Source: Thelocarpon superellum (lineage: Eukaryota). Taken from it: 34,793 nucleotides of DNA. Both the position numbers and the translations under genes were made by a program. The stretch covers positions 1-34,793 of the forward strand of contig JAPEUG010000165.1 in the NCBI GenBank assembly GCA_026025795.1. Reading direction: 5' to 3'. Positions 693 through 15,767 of the stretch are shown in pieces (the stretch's first letter is position 1; each line of letters starts with the position of its first letter). The notes under the pieces are model-generated. The model was not told where the DNA came from. It did not search any database and worked only from the letters and a program-made list of their open reading frames with translations.

Positions 693-1553
693 GAGACATC
701 CTGCACGGCGGGAATCGACGTGATGTAACGAAGGTTACCGCTGTTTCCCAACAACGCCGGAGGGTCTCCTGACGACTGACTCGAGAAGCTGGCGCGGCGT
801 GACTGGTCGGCGAGGGAGCCGACCGTGGAGGCGGAAGAGTAGGCGGAGAACACGTCGGCCTCGTTGACATAATTGGGCTCCGATGCTGCCACGGCGGCCG
901 CGGCTGCACCGGCAGCGCCAGGGTAGTCCGTCTCGAGCCGCAAGTGAAAGAAATCTGGAGGAGGCGCGCACCGCAACAGTCAGCGTTGCACGAATCAACC
1001 GCTCACGGGGTTGTGGCGTTGCGACCTGTCGCTCGCGCGCCGGTCTCCACGCCCTGTAGCGGTCGGCCTGGCGCCCGTCCCCGGTGGCCCGGTGGGACGA
1101 TGGCTCACCAGGCCAACCTCTGCTCCAGGGCCTGACCTGGCCCAAAGGCCATTGCCCGCGCCAGCATGCCTGACACCGGCGTTGTCCGGCGTCGGGCCTA
1201 GGCAGGAAGGGACGAGCGGGAGGAAAGCATGAACGAGTGGATGTCGAGGCTCGACCCAACTGTCTACCCCCAAACCCTCCCCGCCTCGGCCCGGCGCCGC
1301 ACTGAGCGGCGGGGTGTTTTTGAGACAGCGCACTGAGAGAGGGAAGGTGTGCGGGTGCAAGAGATCACACCCGCTAGATGATGTGAGGCAGCAAGACGGG
1401 TGCAAATGGGAGCGAGCAGGGTGCCAACGCTAGGTGCTAGGCACTGGGCACGGAGCGCTGGGCCGCTGAGCGTGCATGTTGGCCTGCGAGGGACGAGAAA
1501 ATCCGGAGCGGCAAAGCGAAGAGCGAAATCCTCTGTTACGTACCGTTGTTCAT
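693..1553 (-). CDS. 5' coding exons of an unidentified gene that runs off the left edge; segments 1553-1544 and 954-693 (MNN|DFFHLRLETDYPG...RRASFSS...VQDVS|)
   Basis: ATG AAC AAC G at 1553-1544 is followed by donor GTACGT (1543). Branch GCTGAC (984-979) and CAG acceptor (957-955) join it in phase to an 87-codon open exon that ends at a perfect GTGAGT donor (692). It is the first AUG after a long AUG-free stretch. No homolog recognised. Confidence 0.5.
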
Positions 1554-2741
1554 TGGCGGAACCGATGACGCAGATTGGAGCGCCGTCACCCAGAGGGAAA
1601 GCGAGCGGCGAATGGGAGCGAGCGCGGCGACCTCCAGTCGATATGGCTCGTCGAAGGGGCGATTGCGCCGTTCGGGATGCCGAACGTCAGCTTCCGTCCG
1701 CTCCTCGCCGCTCTCGACACAGCGACGGATGGAGCCGACCGCGATCGCAACCGCGTTGGCCGACCGGTAGGAAATCCCGTCCAGGGAACCCTCACGTCGG
1801 TGCACCGGTCGACGGCGGCGGTGGCGGCGGCGGTGGCGGCGGCCGTCCGGACACCTGCGGGAGCCGTGAGCCTATTGTTCCGCTCCAGGCTGGGCTCCAA
1901 GGCCGCTACCGGGCATTGTGAGCTCGCTTGGGGCGGGAGACCTTACCTGAATGACGGCCGCTCGTCAGAATTGTCTTTGGTCGATACCTGGGAAGGTCCG
2001 CGTCGGATCGCTTAACGGAGCTATCGTAGAATGTGAGATGTTGCGCGCCAGAGAGTTTCGCTAGCCCACGCCCTCGAGTCCCTAGAACTCGGATCGGACC
2101 GCCCCGAAGGGATTCGGGTGCTGCGGTGCTTCGGCTCCAGCGCCGGCGAGCGTCGCTAGTCTCCAAGCTAAAGCGGGCGTTGCGGACGGTCCACGTCAAG
2201 ACACTCGCTTTCTTCCTTTTTCCGACGTCCGTCGCAAATCTGCCGGCCCACCGGTGAAGTTGCCGCCGACGAGGCAGTGTGCACCGAAGCAGTGAGGGCA
2301 AACGGCCGAGGCCCGCGGGCGATGCCACGCGTCGCGCGTCTGGATCAACAGCTCCGCCGAGATGATCGGGACTGGAGCGGTTCTGGCGCCGTCGAAGATG
2401 AGATGCGCTTGTGCCTGGCGACCGGTGACGGGCAACGACCTGTCCCAACTGCGATCCGGTGGCAGCAGCCTCTTTAGGTTGCTTTTGAACCGCTGCTGGA
2501 ATGCTCCAACGTGTGGAGAAGTGTCGCGCCGAGACCACTCGTCGTCGTCGTCCTCGCCCAGCTGAGACCCAGGCGTGCTATGACGGCCGCACCGATTGGC
2601 GTTGGTTGGTTGGCTGACGTGATAGGCCGGTAGACGACGTGCAGGAGCGTCGGTAGCTTCGATGCAGTCCCTGGCGTAGACTCGATCTGCGGCCGACGGT
2701 CGGCGGTCGGCGGTCAGCGGCTGAGACCTCGTCGCAGCCGA

Positions 2742-2789
2742 GATGCGAGGTGCGAGGTGCGAGGTGCGAGATGTGAGATGCGATGTGCG
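2742..2789. repeat. Degenerate 7-mer tandem repeat (GGTGCGA/GATGCGA)
   Basis: gatgcgaggtgcgaggtgcgaggtgcgagatgtgagatgcgatgtgcg. Confidence 0.75.
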
Positions 2790-2988
2790 TCGCTGGGCGG
2801 GCAGGTGGGGGGAGAGGGGAGGACGGACGTCGGCTGTCCCCGGCTCAGACCAGGTCCAACCAGCGGCCGCGACGTGTTCGGCAGCGTGAGCACCTCGGAC
2901 GCAAGGAGAAGGCACACCGTGATGAGCGCCGCGTTGGTGGGAGGCCCGAGCGGATGGTGTCTGATGCAAAGAGATCCTCACGTCTCGC

Positions 2989-3000
2989 CGTATATATACG
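2989..3000 (-). promoter_or_regulatory. Candidate TATA box (perfect palindrome CGTATATATACG) for the minus-strand long-leader transcript
   Basis: Isolated TATATATA in very GC-rich DNA. On the minus strand it is followed by pyrimidine-rich, AUG-free sequence. Confidence 0.45.
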
Positions 3001-4017
3001 CGGGCGGTGCCTGGACGATGGTGCGCTCGGTGGAGGGCGGGTTGGGCAGACGCTGATCAGGCCGCGCGGGTCAATGGCATGCGCGCTCGCCGTCTTGGCC
3101 ACGATCCAAACACGGCGCAGGCCCGAGACTTTGGGGTGCGTGAGCCCGTCAACAGGAGCAGCGAGGGATGGCGATAGGGGCAACGTTGCGGGCGGCGCTG
3201 AACGGGATCGTGGAGGGCAAGGCCAGCTACAGAGCGCACCGGCGAGGTTAAGAGACTTCTACGAAGGGTCTCGCATGGTACACAAGAGCCAGCTAGCCTC
3301 GGGCGGAGTGGGCCAGACAAGCAGGTACTCGTGAGTTAATCCGCTGACCCAGCATGGGTCCATCTTCAAGTTGCTGCGAGCCTCTTCATCACCGCGGCCT
3401 GCCGCTCCCTTCACGCGCCCGGTCCATCGGCCCTCAGACCAGCTAGGACGTGCCATGAACGCCGTGGCCGGAGGAATTCGGACCAAGGTTCCAGACGGTA
3501 ATCTCGCTGGCGGTTGCATTCGCGTTGGTTGGCTGCGCCTCTCAGGTCATGAAGAGGGGCAGATGGCAGGCTGCAGCGAGGGAGCGTTGGAGCTCTGTGG
3601 GCAAGGTCCGAAGCGGTAAGCCCAGGCGGATCCGAGATCGTCTCGCGCTGATCATTTGCCTGCTCACGCTTAGACGTAGACGGTGTCGGCGGTCGACGGT
3701 AGACAGAAGGCAGAAGGCCGTAGGCGGGGCGAGGTGGGGAGCGGGCATCTGGGGCGTCGCCGCTGAAGCTGCGGTGACGCCGAACGTGGGTAAGTGCCAA
3801 GGCGGGCGATGGGCGATCGGAGACGGTCTCGCACTGCTTCCTACTGGGCAGAGGGCAAGCCTCTCTCCTCCAGTGGGGACAAGACGTGTTCCTGCATCGA
3901 GCGATGGTCTGGCCACGACGAAATCGTGATGGAGTCCTGCACGGCTATACGCATGGGTGGCGTAGCGGGGGTCCGCTCATTGGCTCGGACGTGAGACCGT
4001 GGGACTGCAAAGAGCAG

Positions 4018-4043
4018 TCATTTCTCATTTCTCATTTCTCATT
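4018..4043. repeat. (CATTTCT)n 7-mer microsatellite
   Basis: tcatttctcatttctcatttctcatt. Confidence 0.75.
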
Positions 4044-5821
4044 CTTCATCTCAGTCCCGGAGAAGGGTTTTTGGACCATGCATGGCCAAGCCGTTCGGAG
4101 GGATCGGGCACATCTTGAGGTCATCCGCGCCTCGATCGGGGGCTCCGTCGTGCGGCCGGTGTAGCACGTCTATCGACACGGACGATGCGGTTGCAGTCGT
4201 GGGGTGTTTGAAGTGACCACTCCTCTCGTCGCCCATGTGGACTGGCCTTGGTCGCGGAGCGCGATTGGCCGACGACAATTTTTCCCCACGCCCCGGCTGG
4301 GAGACTTAGTCCCCGGTGCAGATCTGCGCCCTGCTCCTTTCTTCCCCGGCTGCAGACGCTAGAGGAACAGGGATGTCGCGGATCTTTGTCCAGGGTGCAA
4401 AAGCCGTGGCGCGATCCGAGACGCAGGACGAGTAGGGTTTACGGTAACTTACGGAGTCACTACTCCCGTACGAGTACTGATACTCGTACCAGGGATGCCG
4501 TTGTCGGCAGATGAGAGAAACGACCATGGGAAGAGCGACCACAACTGCACAGGATCTCGAGTACCATGGCGTACCAGTCCTCGTACAGCTAGATCTCTTT
4601 ACTCCTCACGCTTGCGCTCGACTCTCCAGGATGGGCCGGTCCGCTTGAGAGAAGGGCCCCCTCTCTTCGCTCGAGCTAACCCTTCCCGCGACCTTTTACG
4701 ACGATGACGCTGGCACTGATCATGGCCATGGCGGCCACGGCGGCGACAACGACATCGACGACCACGACAGGGACGATGACCAGGGTCGTGATGGGTCTAT
4801 TTCCGGCGCAGCCCTAGCTGCATCTCGAATGGTTGGGCAGTCGATGATCCGTTCGCTTTCTGGTTCGGGTTCAGGCTCTCTCGTCTACCTTTGGGGCAGA
4901 ATGCGTCTGTGCAGTCCCTCGGTCGGAAAGGGCATTGGTCGTGTTTTGTCGTAGCTTATCCGCTGGGGCCCAACCTCAAGGCTAGATCTTGAACCCTCCA
5001 ACGATCCGCCGAGCCCCGGAGGAAAGCAGCCGCCGAGCCTACCTGCATCGCTGCGTCCTGGCCCCGCCGTCTCGACCGCTCGGACTTCGGGTCGCCCGTC
5101 CGGCACCTCCGACTTCCGACTGACCGAGCTTTACTTCAGCAGACGCCTCCACTCCCATCAGCCGCTTAGGATTTGCATCTCCTCGGCCGGATCGTAGGTG
5201 GCAACAGCAGGCCGCGGATCCGTCCCGAACAGAACACCGCCGTCACGCTCACCGTCACCGCGGCCGCTACCGTGGCCGTGGCGATGGCGATGGCCGGGGC
5301 TGGGCTATCGACGGCCTCCCCGGCCAGCTACCCGGCCATCGTAATCATTCCTGGACCATATCGAGCCATCTGACCGCCGCGTGGGGGACGCCGGCCCGCC
5401 TAGCCGTATCACCGCTCCACTCCCCCGCTGGCCTTCACGGCCTCTGCTCCTCCACCGCCCCTCCGTCAGATGTCACTCCCGTCGTACTACCCTCCCGGTC
5501 GAGCCACGGCCTTCCGTACCTGCAGCACCATCGCGTCATCATCCCTCCACTGACATGGGGATGGAGAGGACCTGTCCTGGCGGGCGCACGGGCTTGTCAT
5601 GAGAAGGCTCTGCATCACCATGCACGGATTGGTTCGAGGCTGCTGCTGTCAAGGCAGCTGCCCTTGCGCCCTGCTCACACGAGCATCGCCCACATGCCTC
5701 GCCTCACGCCGCACGCCGCACGCACCCCGCCTCACGCTTCAGGCCTCACGCTCCACGCCCCATGCCTTTGATGACATGCACGCTCTCGGACATGAGCGAC
5801 GCACGTTGGCCCAGTCCATTG

Positions 5822-5853
5822 CCCTCGCCTCCCTCGCCTCCCTCGCCTCCCTT
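5822..5853. repeat. (CCCTCGCCT)n 9-mer tandem repeat
   Basis: ccctcgcctccctcgcctccctcgcctccctt. Confidence 0.75.
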
Positions 5854-8169
5854 GCGTCTTCGTCTGGACAGGTGGGCTCCCGACGGAGTGGTCGAGGAGG
5901 TCTAAGGTGATTGCAGCCAGACAGGAAAGGTCGGCGACGCTCCCTTCAAGGGAGTGGCGTGCAGCGTCGGCCTACCTCCCTTCAGCCGCATCTTCTCAGC
6001 GTGGCGAAGATGACCAGCGGCAAGCATATGGTGGCACTCCGATCGTGGTGCCAGCAACGGGCCTGGAAATGGCGCGTCAGTTGACTGGGGCCCCGAGGGT
6101 TCGCCGTCGTAAACTCGGCTCGGATTGCATCAGAGCCGTGGGTCAGGCGTCCCGGCGTGATGCTATCCAGGGCGTTGGCGTCTGAGCGCAGCGAACGACA
6201 GGGCTCCGATCGGTTGGCCACTGATGCAGTGGAGGCCGAGAGAGGACGTGGATCGGACTGCGTCAACGCCCAGGCGCCTCCTTGTCGTCCGACCAGAGCG
6301 GTGCCGGTGCAGCAGCTACTGCAGGCAAACCGGTGGGCTGGTCCAGCAACAAGTTGCCTGTTTGGGGGTGGTCACGCCGTCATTCTGGTTTCACCACTCC
6401 GCCTGAGCGGACACTGGAAGGCTCGAAGAGGGGCCGAATACCAACGGCATCTTGCCTATTTAGTTGCATGTCTTGCATTTCGTCGACCGGCATTTCTGCA
6501 CCTTCCGGCCGGCAAGGACCAGCTGAAAACCCGACGATGCGTTCTGTTGGGCGACGCAAGGGGTTGGCCTGTTTGACCCTTCTTCCGAGGAGAAGTCGGC
6601 TCGGAGTCGCCACGAGGTCTTGCAGCGGTGGCGCGACCAAGTATTCTTACAGAGCCTGCTCCTGATCCTCGCGCTCGCGCTTGCATTCTGGCTCCGCCCC
6701 TTCTTGACAGCGGAGCATTACTCAGGTTGCATTGCAGAGCCGGGGTGGCGTGCGCGGAGGCCCAGGTGTGACGTACGGAATGGGAGTGGGACCGTACGTC
6801 GACGTTGACGACCACGCGCGCCGCTGAGTTGAGGAGTTTCATCTTCAGCTCCAATAACGAGGACGGAGGTCAGATGCGTGGGGCTTTCCGTAAGACCTGC
6901 ACGACGACGGTGACAGGACCGAAGGTGGAACAAGACGTGGGGGCTGGGGGTGGGGGTATGAGCTGGGAGGTGAGAGATGACGCCCTCCTCTCACCGCAAC
7001 TTCTCTCGGGAGCGTGTGATGTTTGTGATTGGTCCAGCTTTCATGTTGCTTCCAGGTACCTGCGCACCTCCCGTCCAATCCGGCACTTGCCCCTCGCTGC
7101 GGATGCAAATTCTTTCGTTTCGAGGTAGAGATAGCAGGTGAAGAAGCATGCGTGGAAGATTGATTCACAGATGACGGATCATTTCACTCCAGTCGCGGAG
7201 GCAAGGATGAGGACCAAGCGGAGAATGAGAACAGGATGACATTGACGATGACAAGCGCGAGGACAAGGGCGACGATGATGCGGCTGGCGGGCTGCCTCAC
7301 GAGTCCATCTTAGAAAGCGACCGGCGCGAGATGCGCGACCTGCACGAAACAAAGTAGGCAGCAACTGACAAAAAGACGAGAGGACCAGACATCGACGAAC
7401 TAACGCAGGCCGCCCGACGAATGCTCCTAGACCCACGACTCTCCCTGATCAAGCCTTCCACGTCTACTGACCAGCCGCACCTCATTCTCATTCTCTCCCC
7501 GAGACAGACAGAAGACAGCAGGCAGCATGTGTGGGAATGGAAACGGCAGACACTGGATGGTAGACAGCATGGGGTGTCTTACCCTCCGACTCGACTCGGC
7601 CTGGGGTCATCAGCCCACTTCGATGCTAGTGAGTTGATAGGCTACGAAGAAAAGAAGGAAGATCGCCATGGAGCTAGGTGGGTGAGTGTGCGGAGTGGGT
7701 AGGAGTAGAAGTAGGAGTGGGAAATGAATCTGGGTGTACCTGAACGAGAACGATGTGTAGAGCAGGGGACGTAAAATGTGATTCCTACCCTTCCGCAGGG
7801 GCGGTATCATCCAGTGCGTGGAGTGTGGAATACAGGAATGGAGTACAATTTATGAGTTGTGGTTGCGGTTGTGGTTGTGGCTATGGACACGGGTGCGTGT
7901 ATGGATATGGGTACGTTTATCCAGACCGATAAGCCGTCTATCCTCGTGCATGATCATCCCGCTTCTCTCTTTCTCGTTTTCTCTCTCCTTGCTCCTCTCT
8001 CCTTTTCCCTCTCTCCTTTGTCCTCTCTCCTCTCTCCTCTTTCCAGTCGAGGAAGCCATTTCTAATAATGAACGCATGAGTGCAGAAAGCAGAAGGCAGG
8101 AGGCAGAAATACAAAAAGCAAGCCGCTTCGCTAGAAGCCCAACAACGTCACCTACCAATCACACCATGG

Positions 8170-10020
8170 TCAGGCGTGAATGGCGGACTGAACGCCCGGG
8201 TATACGGCCACCATCCTGGCGTACAGTTCCGGGAAATCGGACATGAGCACCTGCGGGTCCCAAGCGGCCGCAACGAAGAGGGTCGCAACGCCGCTCTTGA
8301 GCGGAGTCAGGAAGACGTTGCAGATCTGTAGGCCGATGAGGAACGCAAACGCCATAACCACGGGTGTGTACTTGTCCCCTGTGTTGTACGCCGGATGGGT
8401 GAAGTCTAGGTAGAGGTAGGCGAGGAAGGCGGTGATGTAGCCCACGAATGTCGCACCCATGGTTAGGACCGGGTCGATCAGACATTCGTTGACCAGTGCG
8501 TCCATCCCGCGGTTTTTGATCATCCTGTGGCAGGGGGGTTGGTGTGTTAGCTGATTATGTAAAGAACCCAGGAGGGGGAAAGGGGAGGAGAGGAGGAGGG
8601 GGAAAGGGGAGAGAGGAGGAGGGGGAAAGGGGAGGAGAGGAGGAGGAGGGCGAAAGGGAAGGAGAAGAGGAGGAGGGGGAGAAGGAGGGGGAGAAGGAAG
8701 GGGAGGAGGAGGAGGAGGAGGAGGAGGAGGAGGAGGAGGAGAAGAGAAGAGGGGACCTACAGCCATGTATCTTTGGCCGCGGGGATGTAGGCCTTGCCGT
8801 AGAGAGCAATGTGAGAAAAGGCGTAATGGTTGACGAATTGCACAATCCACTCGAGGATGCCGACGAAGCAGCCGAGGACGCAGAAGAGAATGGTCCCGAC
8901 GATGTTGCCCTCTGCTGACTCGGATTGCTGCGCGATACTGACGGCTTGGCGGAGGAGTTGTACCAGACTGACAATCAGCGACCCGAAGCTGATGCTCCCA
9001 AAGGAATAGGTCATGGCACGGCGGAAGGCGCCGCGGGTGGCCCCCGACGGCACGCCGCCCGGCTTCTGCGAGCAGAAATACCACGACCCGTACACGCCGG
9101 CGATGGTCGTGTGGATCGTCTGCCGCATCCACTCCGTGATCCAGTAGCCGGCAAAGGTGATGAAGACCAACAGTCCAATCACCTTGGCCGAGGAGCATCC
9201 CCCAGCGGCCGCGTCACACGCCGGATTGTTGCCCGGCTGGTATTTGACGTAGATGGCCGTGAAGGTGACGGAGTACCACGCGCCAAAAGCCGTGGCAACC
9301 AGGCCGCCCAGGAAGGAGACGGTGAAGACGTGACCGTATGGTCCCTTGGCCACGTCCATGACCGTCTGCAGGATGAGCACGCTGAAGGGGATGCGTGGGA
9401 TCCAGCTGATGAAGCAGATGATGTAGAAGACGGAGAAGATGAGAAAGACAATGGCCGCCGAGTAGTAGTGTCGTGCAAAGTAGACGACCGCCGTGCCGAT
9501 GCCGAAGACGATGTTCAGGATGCCCGTGATCCAGATGAACTGCTTGGTGAAAGCACGGGCCAAGGTGAAGTAGGCCCAGCTGAGGACGAGGGCGACGAGG
9601 AGCACAAAGGCAAAGAGGATGACGGTGTTGGTGGACAGGCTGAAATCATTGCCCCCGTCGTAGATACCTCCGCCGTTGAAGCCTTTGGTCGTTGCATATC
9701 CCTGCAGCGCGAACCCACTGACCGCGACAAAGCCACAGAAGGTGAGGATCAGCTAGGGCGACTCGTTAGCCATCTGAAAAATCGCCCTTTCCATGCCGCT
9801 GCCTTACCAGGATGCCCGCCCACACATCGTGCCACTTGGGCGTGTCGACGCGGAAGGTCTGGTCAAAGCTCGCCTTCTCACCGGAGGCGGGAAGGGGCGC
9901 GGGCTGATAGGTATACGTCGGCGGTTGCTGCGTGAACTTGGGGTCTTGGTAGCCCTGGCCGTTGGCTGGTGGGGCACCGGCGTTCATGGACGGTCCATAC
10001 GGCTGTTGGGGGGCCGCCAT
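8170..10020 (-). CDS. PNS1: Protein PNS1, choline transporter-like (CTL/SLC44) family; exons 10020-9808, 9752-8761, 8524-8170; ~519 aa
   Basis: Pro/Gln-rich N-terminus ending FDQTFRVDTPKWHDVWAGIL, multiple TM helices, motifs TTIAGVYGSWYF, TYSFGSISFGSL and YAFSHIALYGKAY. Both introns are GT..AG with GCTAAC branch sites and give an uninterrupted frame. Confidence 0.93.
8571..8754. repeat. Pure purine (GGA/GAA) low-complexity tract inside PNS1 intron 2
   Basis: ~180 nt containing only G and A on the + strand, including (GAG)n; lies within intron 8760-8525. Confidence 0.9.
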
Positions 10021-13564: not shown

Positions 13565-15767
13565 ATGTTGTCGTCACGCCTGGCTCGATCGGTGGGTCGC
13601 TCCAAATGGCCATCCAGCCACCCGGCCCACGCATCGAGAAGCTGACCGCAAGCATAGCTCCCACGCAACGTCGCCGCCCTTCCCCGATCGTCCCCTCTCC
13701 TTCGCGGTCGTTTGGTGCCATCACTAGCACGATATGAGTCGACGGCAGCATCGGGAGAGGAGAAGGTCAAGGGGCAGGTCATCGGGATTGATCTGGGTAT
13801 GTCTTCCCGTTGGAGCGCCACCATGAACCGCATCGGTCCGCTCACGCAAGCTCACAGGTACGACCAACTCCGCCGTCGCGGTGATGGAAGGGAAGGTACC
13901 GCGGATCATCGAGAACGCCGAAGGTGCACGGACAACCCCTTCCGTCGTGGCCTTTGCCCAAGACGGCGAGCGACTGGTCGGCATCTCGGCCAAGCGCCAG
14001 GCCGTCGTCAACCCCGAAAACACCCTCTTCGCCACGAAGCGGCTCATTGGCCGGAAATTCACGGATCCCGAGTGCCAGCGCGACCTCAAGGAAGTGCCCT
14101 ACAAGATCGTGCAGCACACCAACGGCGACGCCTGGGTTGAGGCCCGCGGGCAGAAGTACTCGCCCTCGCAGATCGGCGGGTTTGTCTTGCAGAAGATGAA
14201 GGAGACGGCCGAGGCCTACCTCAACAAGAACATCAAGAACGGGGTCGTGACCGTGCCGGCCTACTTCAACGACTCGCAACGGCAGGCCACCAAGGATGCC
14301 GGCCAGATCGCCGGCCTGAACGTCTTGCGCGTCGTCAACGAGCCGACCGCTGCGGCCCTGGCGTACGGGCTTGAGAAGGAAGACGATCGGATCATCGCCG
14401 TGTACGATCTGGGAGGCGGCACCTTTGATATCTCCATCCTCGAGATCCAGAAGGGCGTGTTCGAGGTCAAGTCGACCAACGGCGACACCCACTTGGGCGG
14501 CGAAGACTTTGACATTCTGCTCGTGCGCCACTTGGTGCAGCAATTCAAGAAAGAATCCGGCATCGACCTCGCCGGTGACCGCATGGCCATCCAGCGCATC
14601 CGGGAGGCGGCCGAGAAGGCCAAGATCGAGCTCTCGTCGTCGCTGCAGACCGACATCAACCTGCCTTTCATCACCGCCGACGCGTCGGGCCCGAAGCACA
14701 TCAACTCCAAGATCAGCCGGTCGCAGCTCGAGAGCTTGGTCGATCCCCTGATCGGCCGGACCATTGACCCTGTGCGCAAGGCGCTGAAGGACGCCGGCCT
14801 CCAGGCCAAGGATATCCAAGAGGTCATCCTTGTGGGCGGCATGACGCGCATGCCCAAGGTCTCGCAATCCGTCAAGGACATTTTCGGCCGGGACCCGGCC
14901 AAGTCCGTCAACCCGGACGAGGCCGTGGCCATTGGCGCCGCCATCCAGGGTGCCGTCTTGGCGGGTGAGGTCATGGACGTCCTGCTCCTCGACGTCACTC
15001 CGCTGTCGCTCGGGATCGAGACGCTCGGCGGGGTCTTTACGCGTCTGATCAACCGTAACACCACCATCCCGACGAAGAAGTCACAGATCTTCTCGACCGC
15101 GGCCGACTTCCAGACGGCGGTGGAGATCAAGGTCTACCAGGGCGAGCGTGAGCTGGTGCGCGACAACAAGCTCCTCGGCAACTTCCAGCTCGTCGGCATC
15201 CCGCCGGCGCACCGTGGCGTGCCCCAGGTCGAGGTGACCTTTGACATCGACGCCGACTCCATCGTGCACGTGCATGCCAAGGACAAGGCCACGAACAAGG
15301 ACCAGTCCATCACCATCGCCTCGGGCTCGGGACTCTCCGACGCCGAGATCCAGGGCATGGTGGACGACGCCGAGCGATACGGCGAGCAGGATAAGGAGCG
15401 CAAGTCGGCCATCGAGTCGGCCAACCGGGCCGACAGCGTCCTCAACGATACGGAGAAGGCGCTCAAGGACTTCGAGGACCGACTCGACAAGGCCGAGGCC
15501 GACGCCATCCGGGAGAAGATCGCCGCGCTGCGCGAATTTGTATCCAAGAGCCAGGCAGGCGAGGGCACCACCACCGCCGCCGAGCTCAAGGAGAAGACGG
15601 ACGAGCTGCAGGTCGCGAGCCTGAACCTCTTCGACAAGATGCATAAGGCTCGCGCGGACCAGCCCCCGAGCGGCAGCGGCGACGCATCGGGCCAGTCTGG
15701 CGCGGGCGAGACCGGGTCGTCGACGGACGGATCGGCCCCAGGCAGTGAAGGCGAGAAGAAGCCGTAG
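13565..15767 (+). CDS. SSC1: Mitochondrial Hsp70 chaperone; exons 13565-13591, 13658-13796, 13858-15767; ~691 aa
   Basis: Arg/Ser/Leu-rich presequence [17 protein letters not shown]...; [26 protein letters not shown] and [16 protein letters not shown]; DnaK-like; no EEVD or HDEL tail. Confidence 0.96.

Follow-up and report, generated by a model that had tools for sequence, protein, structure and literature searches.

Long 5′ leaders that act through conserved upstream open reading frames (uORFs), by control of scanning or reinitiation, are known from Saccharomyces cerevisiae GCN4, Neurospora crassa cpc-1 and CPA1/arg-2. The morphogenesis regulator UME6 of Candida albicans is reportedly also preceded by a long 5′ untranslated region (UTR). 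For C. albicans WOR1 it was shown by experiment that the 5′ UTR lowers translational efficiency, as far as the published account was accessible. The EFG1 leader of ~1.1 kb, which in its SC5314 version is without a short AUG uORF of another strain, promotes translation according to the accessible sections of PMC6034079, and those of PMC5487733 give the cpc-1 leader as longer than 700 nt with two uORFs. Neurospora leaders are described as long and AUG-rich, and leaders low in upstream AUGs as exceptional in fungi, in the accessible sections of PMC7049704. Here we describe a zone almost free of ATG on the minus strand of a 34,793-nt DNA stretch of Thelocarpon superellum (GenBank assembly GCA_026025795.1, contig JAPEUG010000165.1, positions 1 to 34,793; hereafter the window). 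The minus-strand sequence from 1554 to ~2950–3077 is very probably the 5′ leader of an NDT80/PhoG-type (p53-like) gene, from which upstream AUGs were purged by selection.

The minus strand of 1554–3077 contained one ATG (CAT on the plus strand), at 1916–1914, and the nearest minus-strand ATGs bounding the zone were at 1553–1551 and 3080–3078. Twenty-four ATGs were counted on the plus strand of the same zone, 19 of them in 1918–3077. An earlier note on this DNA had reported the single minus-strand ATG, which was exact on recounting, and had counted about 19 plus-strand ATGs by hand in 1918–3077, the number found here. When 1554–3077 was shuffled 20000 times with its dinucleotides preserved, 11.45 minus-strand ATGs (standard deviation 2.68) were expected, and one or none was obtained in 1/20000 shuffles, indicating that the depletion holds with dinucleotide content kept. 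For 1917–3077 the expectation was 8.46, and zero ATGs were obtained in 0/20000 shuffles. The plus strand of 1554–3077 was not depleted (24 ATGs versus 19.1 expected from dinucleotide shuffles).

Since the borders of the zone had been chosen post hoc, a whole-window correction was made by block shuffles that kept local dinucleotide content, and the largest gap on either strand was taken; the background for ATG gaps was the 34.8-kb window and a set of orthologous metagenome loci. A single ATG gap of at least 1164 nt was found anywhere in the window in 7/1500 shuffles with 500-nt blocks and 5/1500 with 1500-nt blocks. A span of at least 1527 nt with one ATG or none was found in 0/1500 and 3/1500 shuffles, respectively. 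The runner-up gaps in the real window were 435 nt (ATG) and 423 nt (CAT).

The depletion was specific to ATG and to the sense strand. Among the 64 trinucleotides, the CAT-free gap was the top normalised gap in the window (18.6 expected hits), followed by that of GGG (15.6), and ATG had the lowest observed/expected ratio on the leader sense strand (0.09; next lowest, 0.53). In the zone the minus-strand ATG density was 0.7/kb, compared with 6.8/kb in intron 955–1543 next to it and 15.8/kb in 3078–8000. The borders were sharp, with a start codon at the lower end and the rise to 15.8/kb at the upper end. Purging of scanned AUGs would explain why the sense strand has one ATG where ~11–24 would be expected and why ATG numbers are normal on the antisense strand, in the neighbouring intron and in more distant upstream DNA.

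To the lower side, the zone is bounded by the beginning of a coding sequence. A search with exon 2 identified one long relative, P0003, a 702-aa protein from the Thelocarpon impressellum genome that carries PF05224 (NDT80/PhoG) and begins MNNDFLQLRLDTDYP. BLASTP of exon 2 against P0003 gave 62% identity over 87 residues (E 2e-28), and tblastn of P0003 against the window matched residues 4–88 to 955–692 with 63.6% identity (E 3.5e-24), with no other credible match. Splicing 1544^954 gives ATG AAC AAC G|AT TTC, which is read as MNN|DFFHLRLETDYPG, i.e. MNN-D-FFHLRLETDYPG. Because MNN|D matches the P0003 N-terminus and exon 2 matches its residues 4–88, the ATG at 1553 is supported by homology as the real start, together with the junction 1544^954. 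The earlier note had read both correctly, taking 1553 as the first remaining AUG, which opens a 10-nt coding segment, and the same junction, which agrees with the P0003 N-terminus (MNND...). It had guessed a fungal regulator gene and suggested BLAST of the spliced protein; the relative so obtained (P0003, 62% identity) makes the gene one for an NDT80/PhoG-type transcription factor, an assignment that consists in the identity of the N-terminal 87 residues to the PF05224-carrying protein.

The portion of the gene in the window comprised 10 coding bases (1553–1544), the 589-nt intron and exon 2 (954–693), with the DNA-binding domain beyond the left end. A first intron of this length (419–688 nt in orthologues) is far above the typical fungal intron. 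If it were retained, the reading frame in the window would stop after five codons (ATG AAC AAC GGT ACG TAA). Complete N-termini of relatives read MNDIL (Botrytis, Stromatinia) and MNQV or MNSV (many Dothideomycetes). An N-terminal search of protein representatives with exon 2 returned only two real relatives, both of them fragments that stop at the exon border. The fragments P0004 and P0005 stop at ...QDVS because the GTGAGT donor gives an in-frame TGA. Most database models of this Ndt80-like group (P0011–P0128) take an internal MPPPSRSP... as the N-terminus and leave out the first exon of 10 nt together with exon 2 (~170 residues). The sub-families VIB-1/XprG, NdtA/FSD-1 and RON1 were not told apart by the source names, which are generic, or by the protein atlas, and the accessible sections of PMC4683649, PMC3821154, PMC4140635 and PMC9426599 gave no help in the assignment.

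Orthologous loci were obtained from metagenome contigs. A scan with the full-length family alignment yielded 80 loci, with the gene on the plus strand in each; an earlier scan with an N-terminal alignment had given 47 pattern matches, of which 0 were confirmed. The N-terminal exon (homologue of exon 2), located by N-terminal peptides, was found upstream of the PF05224-type matches in 33/80 loci. Twenty-seven of these matched from query residue 15 or earlier, and six, which matched only from residue 30 on, were set aside. A 10-nt exon of the form ATG + 7 nt | GT..G[TC] was present 419–688 nt upstream of exon 2 in 24/27 loci, and the three loci without it had just 225–559 nt of upstream DNA. This mini-exon candidate was unique in 23/24 loci (L056 had one extra) and was followed by an in-frame acceptor in 23/24. 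Merging of near-identical loci (L002=L003=L076, L026=L036≈L031=L032, L046≈L048, L066≈L067 and L079=L080) left 16 distinct loci of 48–65% GC.

In the 1 kb before the start, the 16 distinct loci together contained 26 sense ATGs and 249 antisense ATGs, with 172.3 expected from dinucleotide shuffles. Sense ATGs were fewer than antisense ATGs in 16/16 loci, and the observed count was reached by 0–18 of 2000 shuffles per locus. As controls, the introns of these loci contained 9.9 ATG/kb and the sense strand at −5000 to −3500 contained 18.9/kb. The pooled observed/expected ratio of ATG in the orthologous leaders was 0.15, and that of the next lowest trinucleotide was 0.81. The longest ATG-free runs were 3059 nt (L026), at least 2234 nt (L035, to the contig end), 1428 nt (L006), 1398 nt (L033), 1325 nt (L051) and 1237 nt (L012); the shortest of the longest runs per locus was 513 nt (L056), and the largest antisense gaps were 112–518 nt. 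Apart from short islands, the leaders were mostly unalignable between loci, indicating that the absence of ATG persisted through sequence turnover. In the 16 orthologues the frame of the start was closed by stops 7–75 codons before it; the zone is therefore no N-terminal coding extension. Selection against upstream AUGs, which the earlier note had proposed for the window, is thus seen independently in the orthologues.

We infer from the sense-specific depletion of ATG, bounded by a start codon, that the zone is transcribed and kept in the mature mRNA. In the proposed mechanism, 43S complexes would load at the cap and scan the leader, an upstream AUG would divert the scanning complexes, and purifying selection would remove upstream AUGs along the full scanned length. 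Protein output would then depend on scanning capacity (helicases, RNA-binding proteins), a dependence reported for C. albicans regulators that have long AUG-free leaders. The architecture of a putative ~0.4–3 kb AUG-poor leader, a 10-nt start exon and an unusually long intron is inherited across several classes of filamentous ascomycetes. No Rfam family matched anywhere in the window. No unusual RNA structure was indicated for the leader either, as its 150-nt segments had folding z-scores of ~0 on each strand (sense mean +0.20, antisense −0.05). Any control would therefore probably act through the length of the leader, through helicase dependence or through bound proteins, and perhaps also through the conserved islands of orthologue sub-groups.

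A candidate promoter element was present near the upper border. The motif TATAWA occurred in the 34.8-kb window solely as TATATATA at 2991–2998 (four overlapping matches), ~80 nt inside the ATG-free zone. The transcription start site (TSS) would lie at ~2960–2880, downstream of this TATA element, predicting a leader of ~1.3–1.4 kb. The surrounding palindrome (2989–3000), the CAG|GTAAGG at 1946, the acceptors at 1906 and 1855 and the 10-nt segment were all located where the earlier note had placed them.

Several observations weigh against an AUG-purged leader. One AUG in strong context is left in the zone. None of the loci is closely related to the window, the window leader gave no hit in blastn against 17 orthologous leaders, and TATAWA was found near the boundary in 0/13 orthologous loci. 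The loci are phylogenetically related, so a sign test on them overstates their independence. Another 29 loci of the family had 2.5 kb or more of upstream DNA but no recognisable N-terminal exon by which to place the start; their largest sense gaps were 344–987 nt versus antisense gaps of 234–471 nt. Some lineages or paralogues may thus show the trait more weakly or not at all. A different mini-exon was present in six of the 29 loci, ATGAGCAGCA|GT (L007, L011, L037 and L043), ATGAGCAGTA|GT (L044) or ATGAATCATA|GT (L058), and showed milder depletion, with 3–7 sense versus 12–21 antisense ATGs per kb.

It is very improbable that the gap is a functionless product of chance or of the composition of a region that is rich in GC and skewed between strands. 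The GC content there is 65%, G exceeds C on the plus strand, TG outnumbers CA (104 versus 60), other trinucleotides reach normalised gaps of 12–16 in the window, and block shuffles reached the observed gap in 5–7/1500 cases. However, shuffles of the same dinucleotide content still expect 11.45 ATGs, ATG is the sole outlier among the 64 trinucleotides, the gap adjoins, on the correct strand, a start codon confirmed by homology, and the sense-specific depletion recurs in 16/16 orthologous loci over 48–65% GC. Translation of the zone, as a non-AUG N-terminal extension or an unrecognised coding exon, is no more credible than chance. Although in the window no stop interrupts the frame of the main AUG over the 106 codons before it and long stop-free reading frames cover the zone, as expected at 65% GC, the orthologues have in-frame stops 7–75 codons upstream while their ATG-free runs reach 3 kb, and annotated family proteins start at the mini-exon Met. 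Codon periodicity was absent from the zone, a weak test since exon 2 shows little too. The zone might also consist of nested leaders from several TSSs or promoters, or be removed in part by UTR introns, so that the scanned leader would be shorter than ~1.4 kb. This is unlikely, if less so than the two preceding explanations. The islands of ATGs in L007 and L044 that end CTGAC...CAG like UTR introns, and the donor-like sites of the window at 2981, 2917, 2592, 1946 and 1795, are in its favour, but introns are not selected against ATG (4 in 589 nt here; 9.9/kb in the orthologues), and a long spliced-out segment should therefore hold ATGs, yet 1917–3077 has 0. Moreover, each nested transcript would still need an AUG-free part, which is the same mechanism as for a single purged leader.

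Two fates of the lone AUG at 1916 were compared. It may stay in the mRNA as a tolerated or regulatory 14-codon uORF, with reinitiation at 1553, 318 nt on, for which the chance falls just short of even; its removal as part of a UTR intron would be slightly less probable than that. For removal, the leader has no better donor-like site than CAG|GTAAGG (G of GT at 1946), which precedes the AUG by 30 nt, and three usable acceptors follow the AUG: besides that of the 92-nt intron in Table 1, acceptors ending at 1890 (57 nt) and 1906 (41 nt, very short) are available, and GCTCAC occurs at 1923–1918 and 1871–1866. Probable ATG-holding UTR introns in orthologues point the same way. In favour of retention, the AUG is in strong context (A at −3), and the donor GTAAGG (G at +6) and the branch CTCAC are off-consensus. 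Five donor-like sites were found in the leader under relaxed criteria and 0 under strict criteria, the sole strict site in the region being the confirmed donor at 1543; relaxed candidate introns of up to 300 nt cover ~608 of 1524 leader nt (~40%). Upstream ATGs of the orthologues and the window were not enriched in candidate introns, either strict (8/73 versus 10.1% coverage, p 0.46) or relaxed (22/73 versus 34.9%, p 0.83), in a test that is blunt because some of the counted ATGs could precede the TSS.

The lone AUG can be explained without an intron, because the orthologues tolerate a few upstream AUGs. They keep 0–4 upstream ATGs within 1 kb, including overlapping uORFs (L012, L026 and L031), lone 13-codon uORFs at −483 (L039) and −670 (L012), and in-frame ATGs 3–15 nt before the start (L002, L077 and L079). 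These uORFs differ from that of the window in sequence and position, and the window leader aligns to no locus. The switch by intron retention that the earlier note had put forward is speculation.

The overlapping uORF, of 9–10 codons and beginning GCGAATGAGG, lies 25–26 nt before the main AUG in L012 (2331–2360), L026 (8578–8610) and L031 (8310–8342) and ends on or just past it (in L012 the stop overlaps ATGA); it is not in the window and may be a conserved overlapping uORF of one sub-group. Clusters of 4–6 ATGs in the otherwise ATG-free leaders of L007 (7632–7946) and L044 (7433–7547) end with CTGAC, a pyrimidine run and CAG, and so resemble a 5′ UTR intron at its 3′ end.

Short conserved islands were found in two groups of orthologous leaders. 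In L006, L012 and L033, CTCCCCTCCATATTGCGGGGAGACCT lies at about −290 to −235 from the start, with a possible CUCCCC/GGGGAG hairpin. In L064, L066, L069 and L079, GCGGCAGCTAATCGAGGATCG...CCGGCTAAACCGCCCCAGATTGCC lies at about −450 to −290. A CCAGATTGC-like core is common to both islands, and blastn revealed no counterpart in the window.

The features of the locus are listed in Table 1.

Table 1. Features at the left end of the window, in order of position (ATG and AUG refer to the minus strand)
Feature	Positions	Strand	Basis
Coding exon 2, DFFHLRLETDYPG...IPAVQDV, S split across the junction; donor GTGAGT at 692–687	693..954	-	
Intron 1, 589 nt, phase 1, GTACGT ... GCTGACT ... CAG; 4 minus-strand ATGs	955..1543	-	
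Coding exon 1, 10 nt, ATGAACAACG, then donor GTACGT	1544..1553	-	Homology to P0003; same mini-exon in 24/27 orthologous loci
AUG-depleted zone, putative 5′ leader, ~1.3–1.5 kb before any UTR splicing	1554..3077	-	ATG counts and shuffles
Candidate 92-nt 5′ UTR intron, GTAAGG ... GGCTCACGG ... CAG	1855..1946	-	Best donor-like site in leader, relaxed criteria only
Lone upstream AUG and 14-codon uORF (MPGSGLGAQPGAEQ, then stop), A at −3 (cacaATGc)	1872..1916	-	Sequence reading
Palindrome CGTATATATACG, candidate TATA box	2989..3000	.	Sequence reading
Upper-bound ATG of the AUG-free stretch	3078..3080	-	CAT at 3078; density beyond, 15.8/kb (3078–8000)

Tandem repeats were present within the leader, read on the plus strand as CGAGGTG × 7.3 (2739–2789), GCGGTCG × 4.6 (2689–2720) and a (CGG)n/12-mer × 2.6 (1813–1843); they carry plus-strand ATGs and no minus-strand ATG. 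The ~5 kb upstream of the leader (3078–8170) contained no recognisable gene and no codon periodicity, and the two reading frames tested in it, 5124–5771 and 6085–6576, had no Pfam hit. Elsewhere the GC-rich window contains, among others, genes for Hsp70 and for a Zn2Cys6 factor and a choline-transporter-like gene. An open reading frame at 13842–15080 (minus strand), antisense to the Hsp70 gene (13827–15767, plus strand), matched PF10712, 'NAD-specific glutamate dehydrogenase' (E 2e-127). PF10712 is a family known for hits to the antisense strand of HSP70 genes, and this frame is almost certainly not a real gene.

Transcriptional and post-translational regulation of Ndt80-like factors has been discussed before. 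A conserved kilobase-long AUG-purged leader suggests that translation is an additional layer of control, one hitherto unexamined. In filamentous fungi these factors have been linked to responses to nutrient stress, to the production of proteases and cellulases, to cell death and to sexual development, according to the accessible sections of PMC4683649, PMC3821154 and PMC4140635. In PMC4683649, leaders, untranslated regions, uORFs and introns are nowhere mentioned. No account of such a leader for Ndt80-like genes was found in the literature covered; a prior mention is possible, for example in the original vib-1/xprG papers, subscription journals being outside that coverage. A practical consequence concerns the gene models of the family in databases, most of which lack both the 10-nt exon and exon 2.

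With regard to the overall reading of the earlier note, the AUG-purged leader of a regulator gene is supported, by homology and by 16/16 orthologues, and extended to other fungi; translational control would be a possibility, and the UTR-intron switch is speculative. A wider proposal, which we put forward tentatively and rate below either fate of the lone AUG, is that the whole Ndt80-type orthologous group shares an inherited post-transcriptional gate. It would consist of an AUG-free leader of up to 3 kb, a 10-nt start exon, a 0.4–0.7 kb intron that must be removed for the AUG to join the frame, and small leader islands, and output would be set mainly by scanning and splicing and not solely by transcription. 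If this is true, 'ATG deserts' could serve to map such leaders from DNA alone.

Among the known long leaders, that of WOR1 is similar in that it is very long, belongs to a master transcription-factor gene and is free of AUG-initiated uORFs, as far as the accessible account goes. It differs in belonging to another protein family and to a CTG-clade yeast lineage, and the present leader is known from its DNA alone. The 10-nt start exon and long intron of the present gene are conserved across fungal classes, and in the accessible account neither is described for WOR1. EFG1 and UME6 resemble the present gene as regulator genes (of morphogenesis) with kilobase leaders; transcripts have been mapped for both, whereas the leader described here is deduced from genomic sequence. 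Since the EFG1 leader promotes and the WOR1 leader lowers translation, the direction of any effect is unpredictable for the present gene, which also differs from the Candida cases in gene family and fungal subphylum. Leaders of the GCN4, cpc-1 and CPA1 type are likewise long, and the single short uORF found here might act in the same way; however, the near-total absence of AUG dominates here, the opposite of leaders that work through conserved uORFs. The general depletion of upstream AUGs in 5′ UTRs follows the same selective logic under the scanning model, but magnitude and context differ. As leaders in this fungal group are reported to be usually AUG-rich, a conserved AUG-free leader of 1.5–3 kb in filamentous ascomycetes is an outlier. 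The favoured reading is a probable scanned leader of kilobase length that resembles those of WOR1 and EFG1 and belongs to an Ndt80-type gene with a conserved mini-exon and a long intron.

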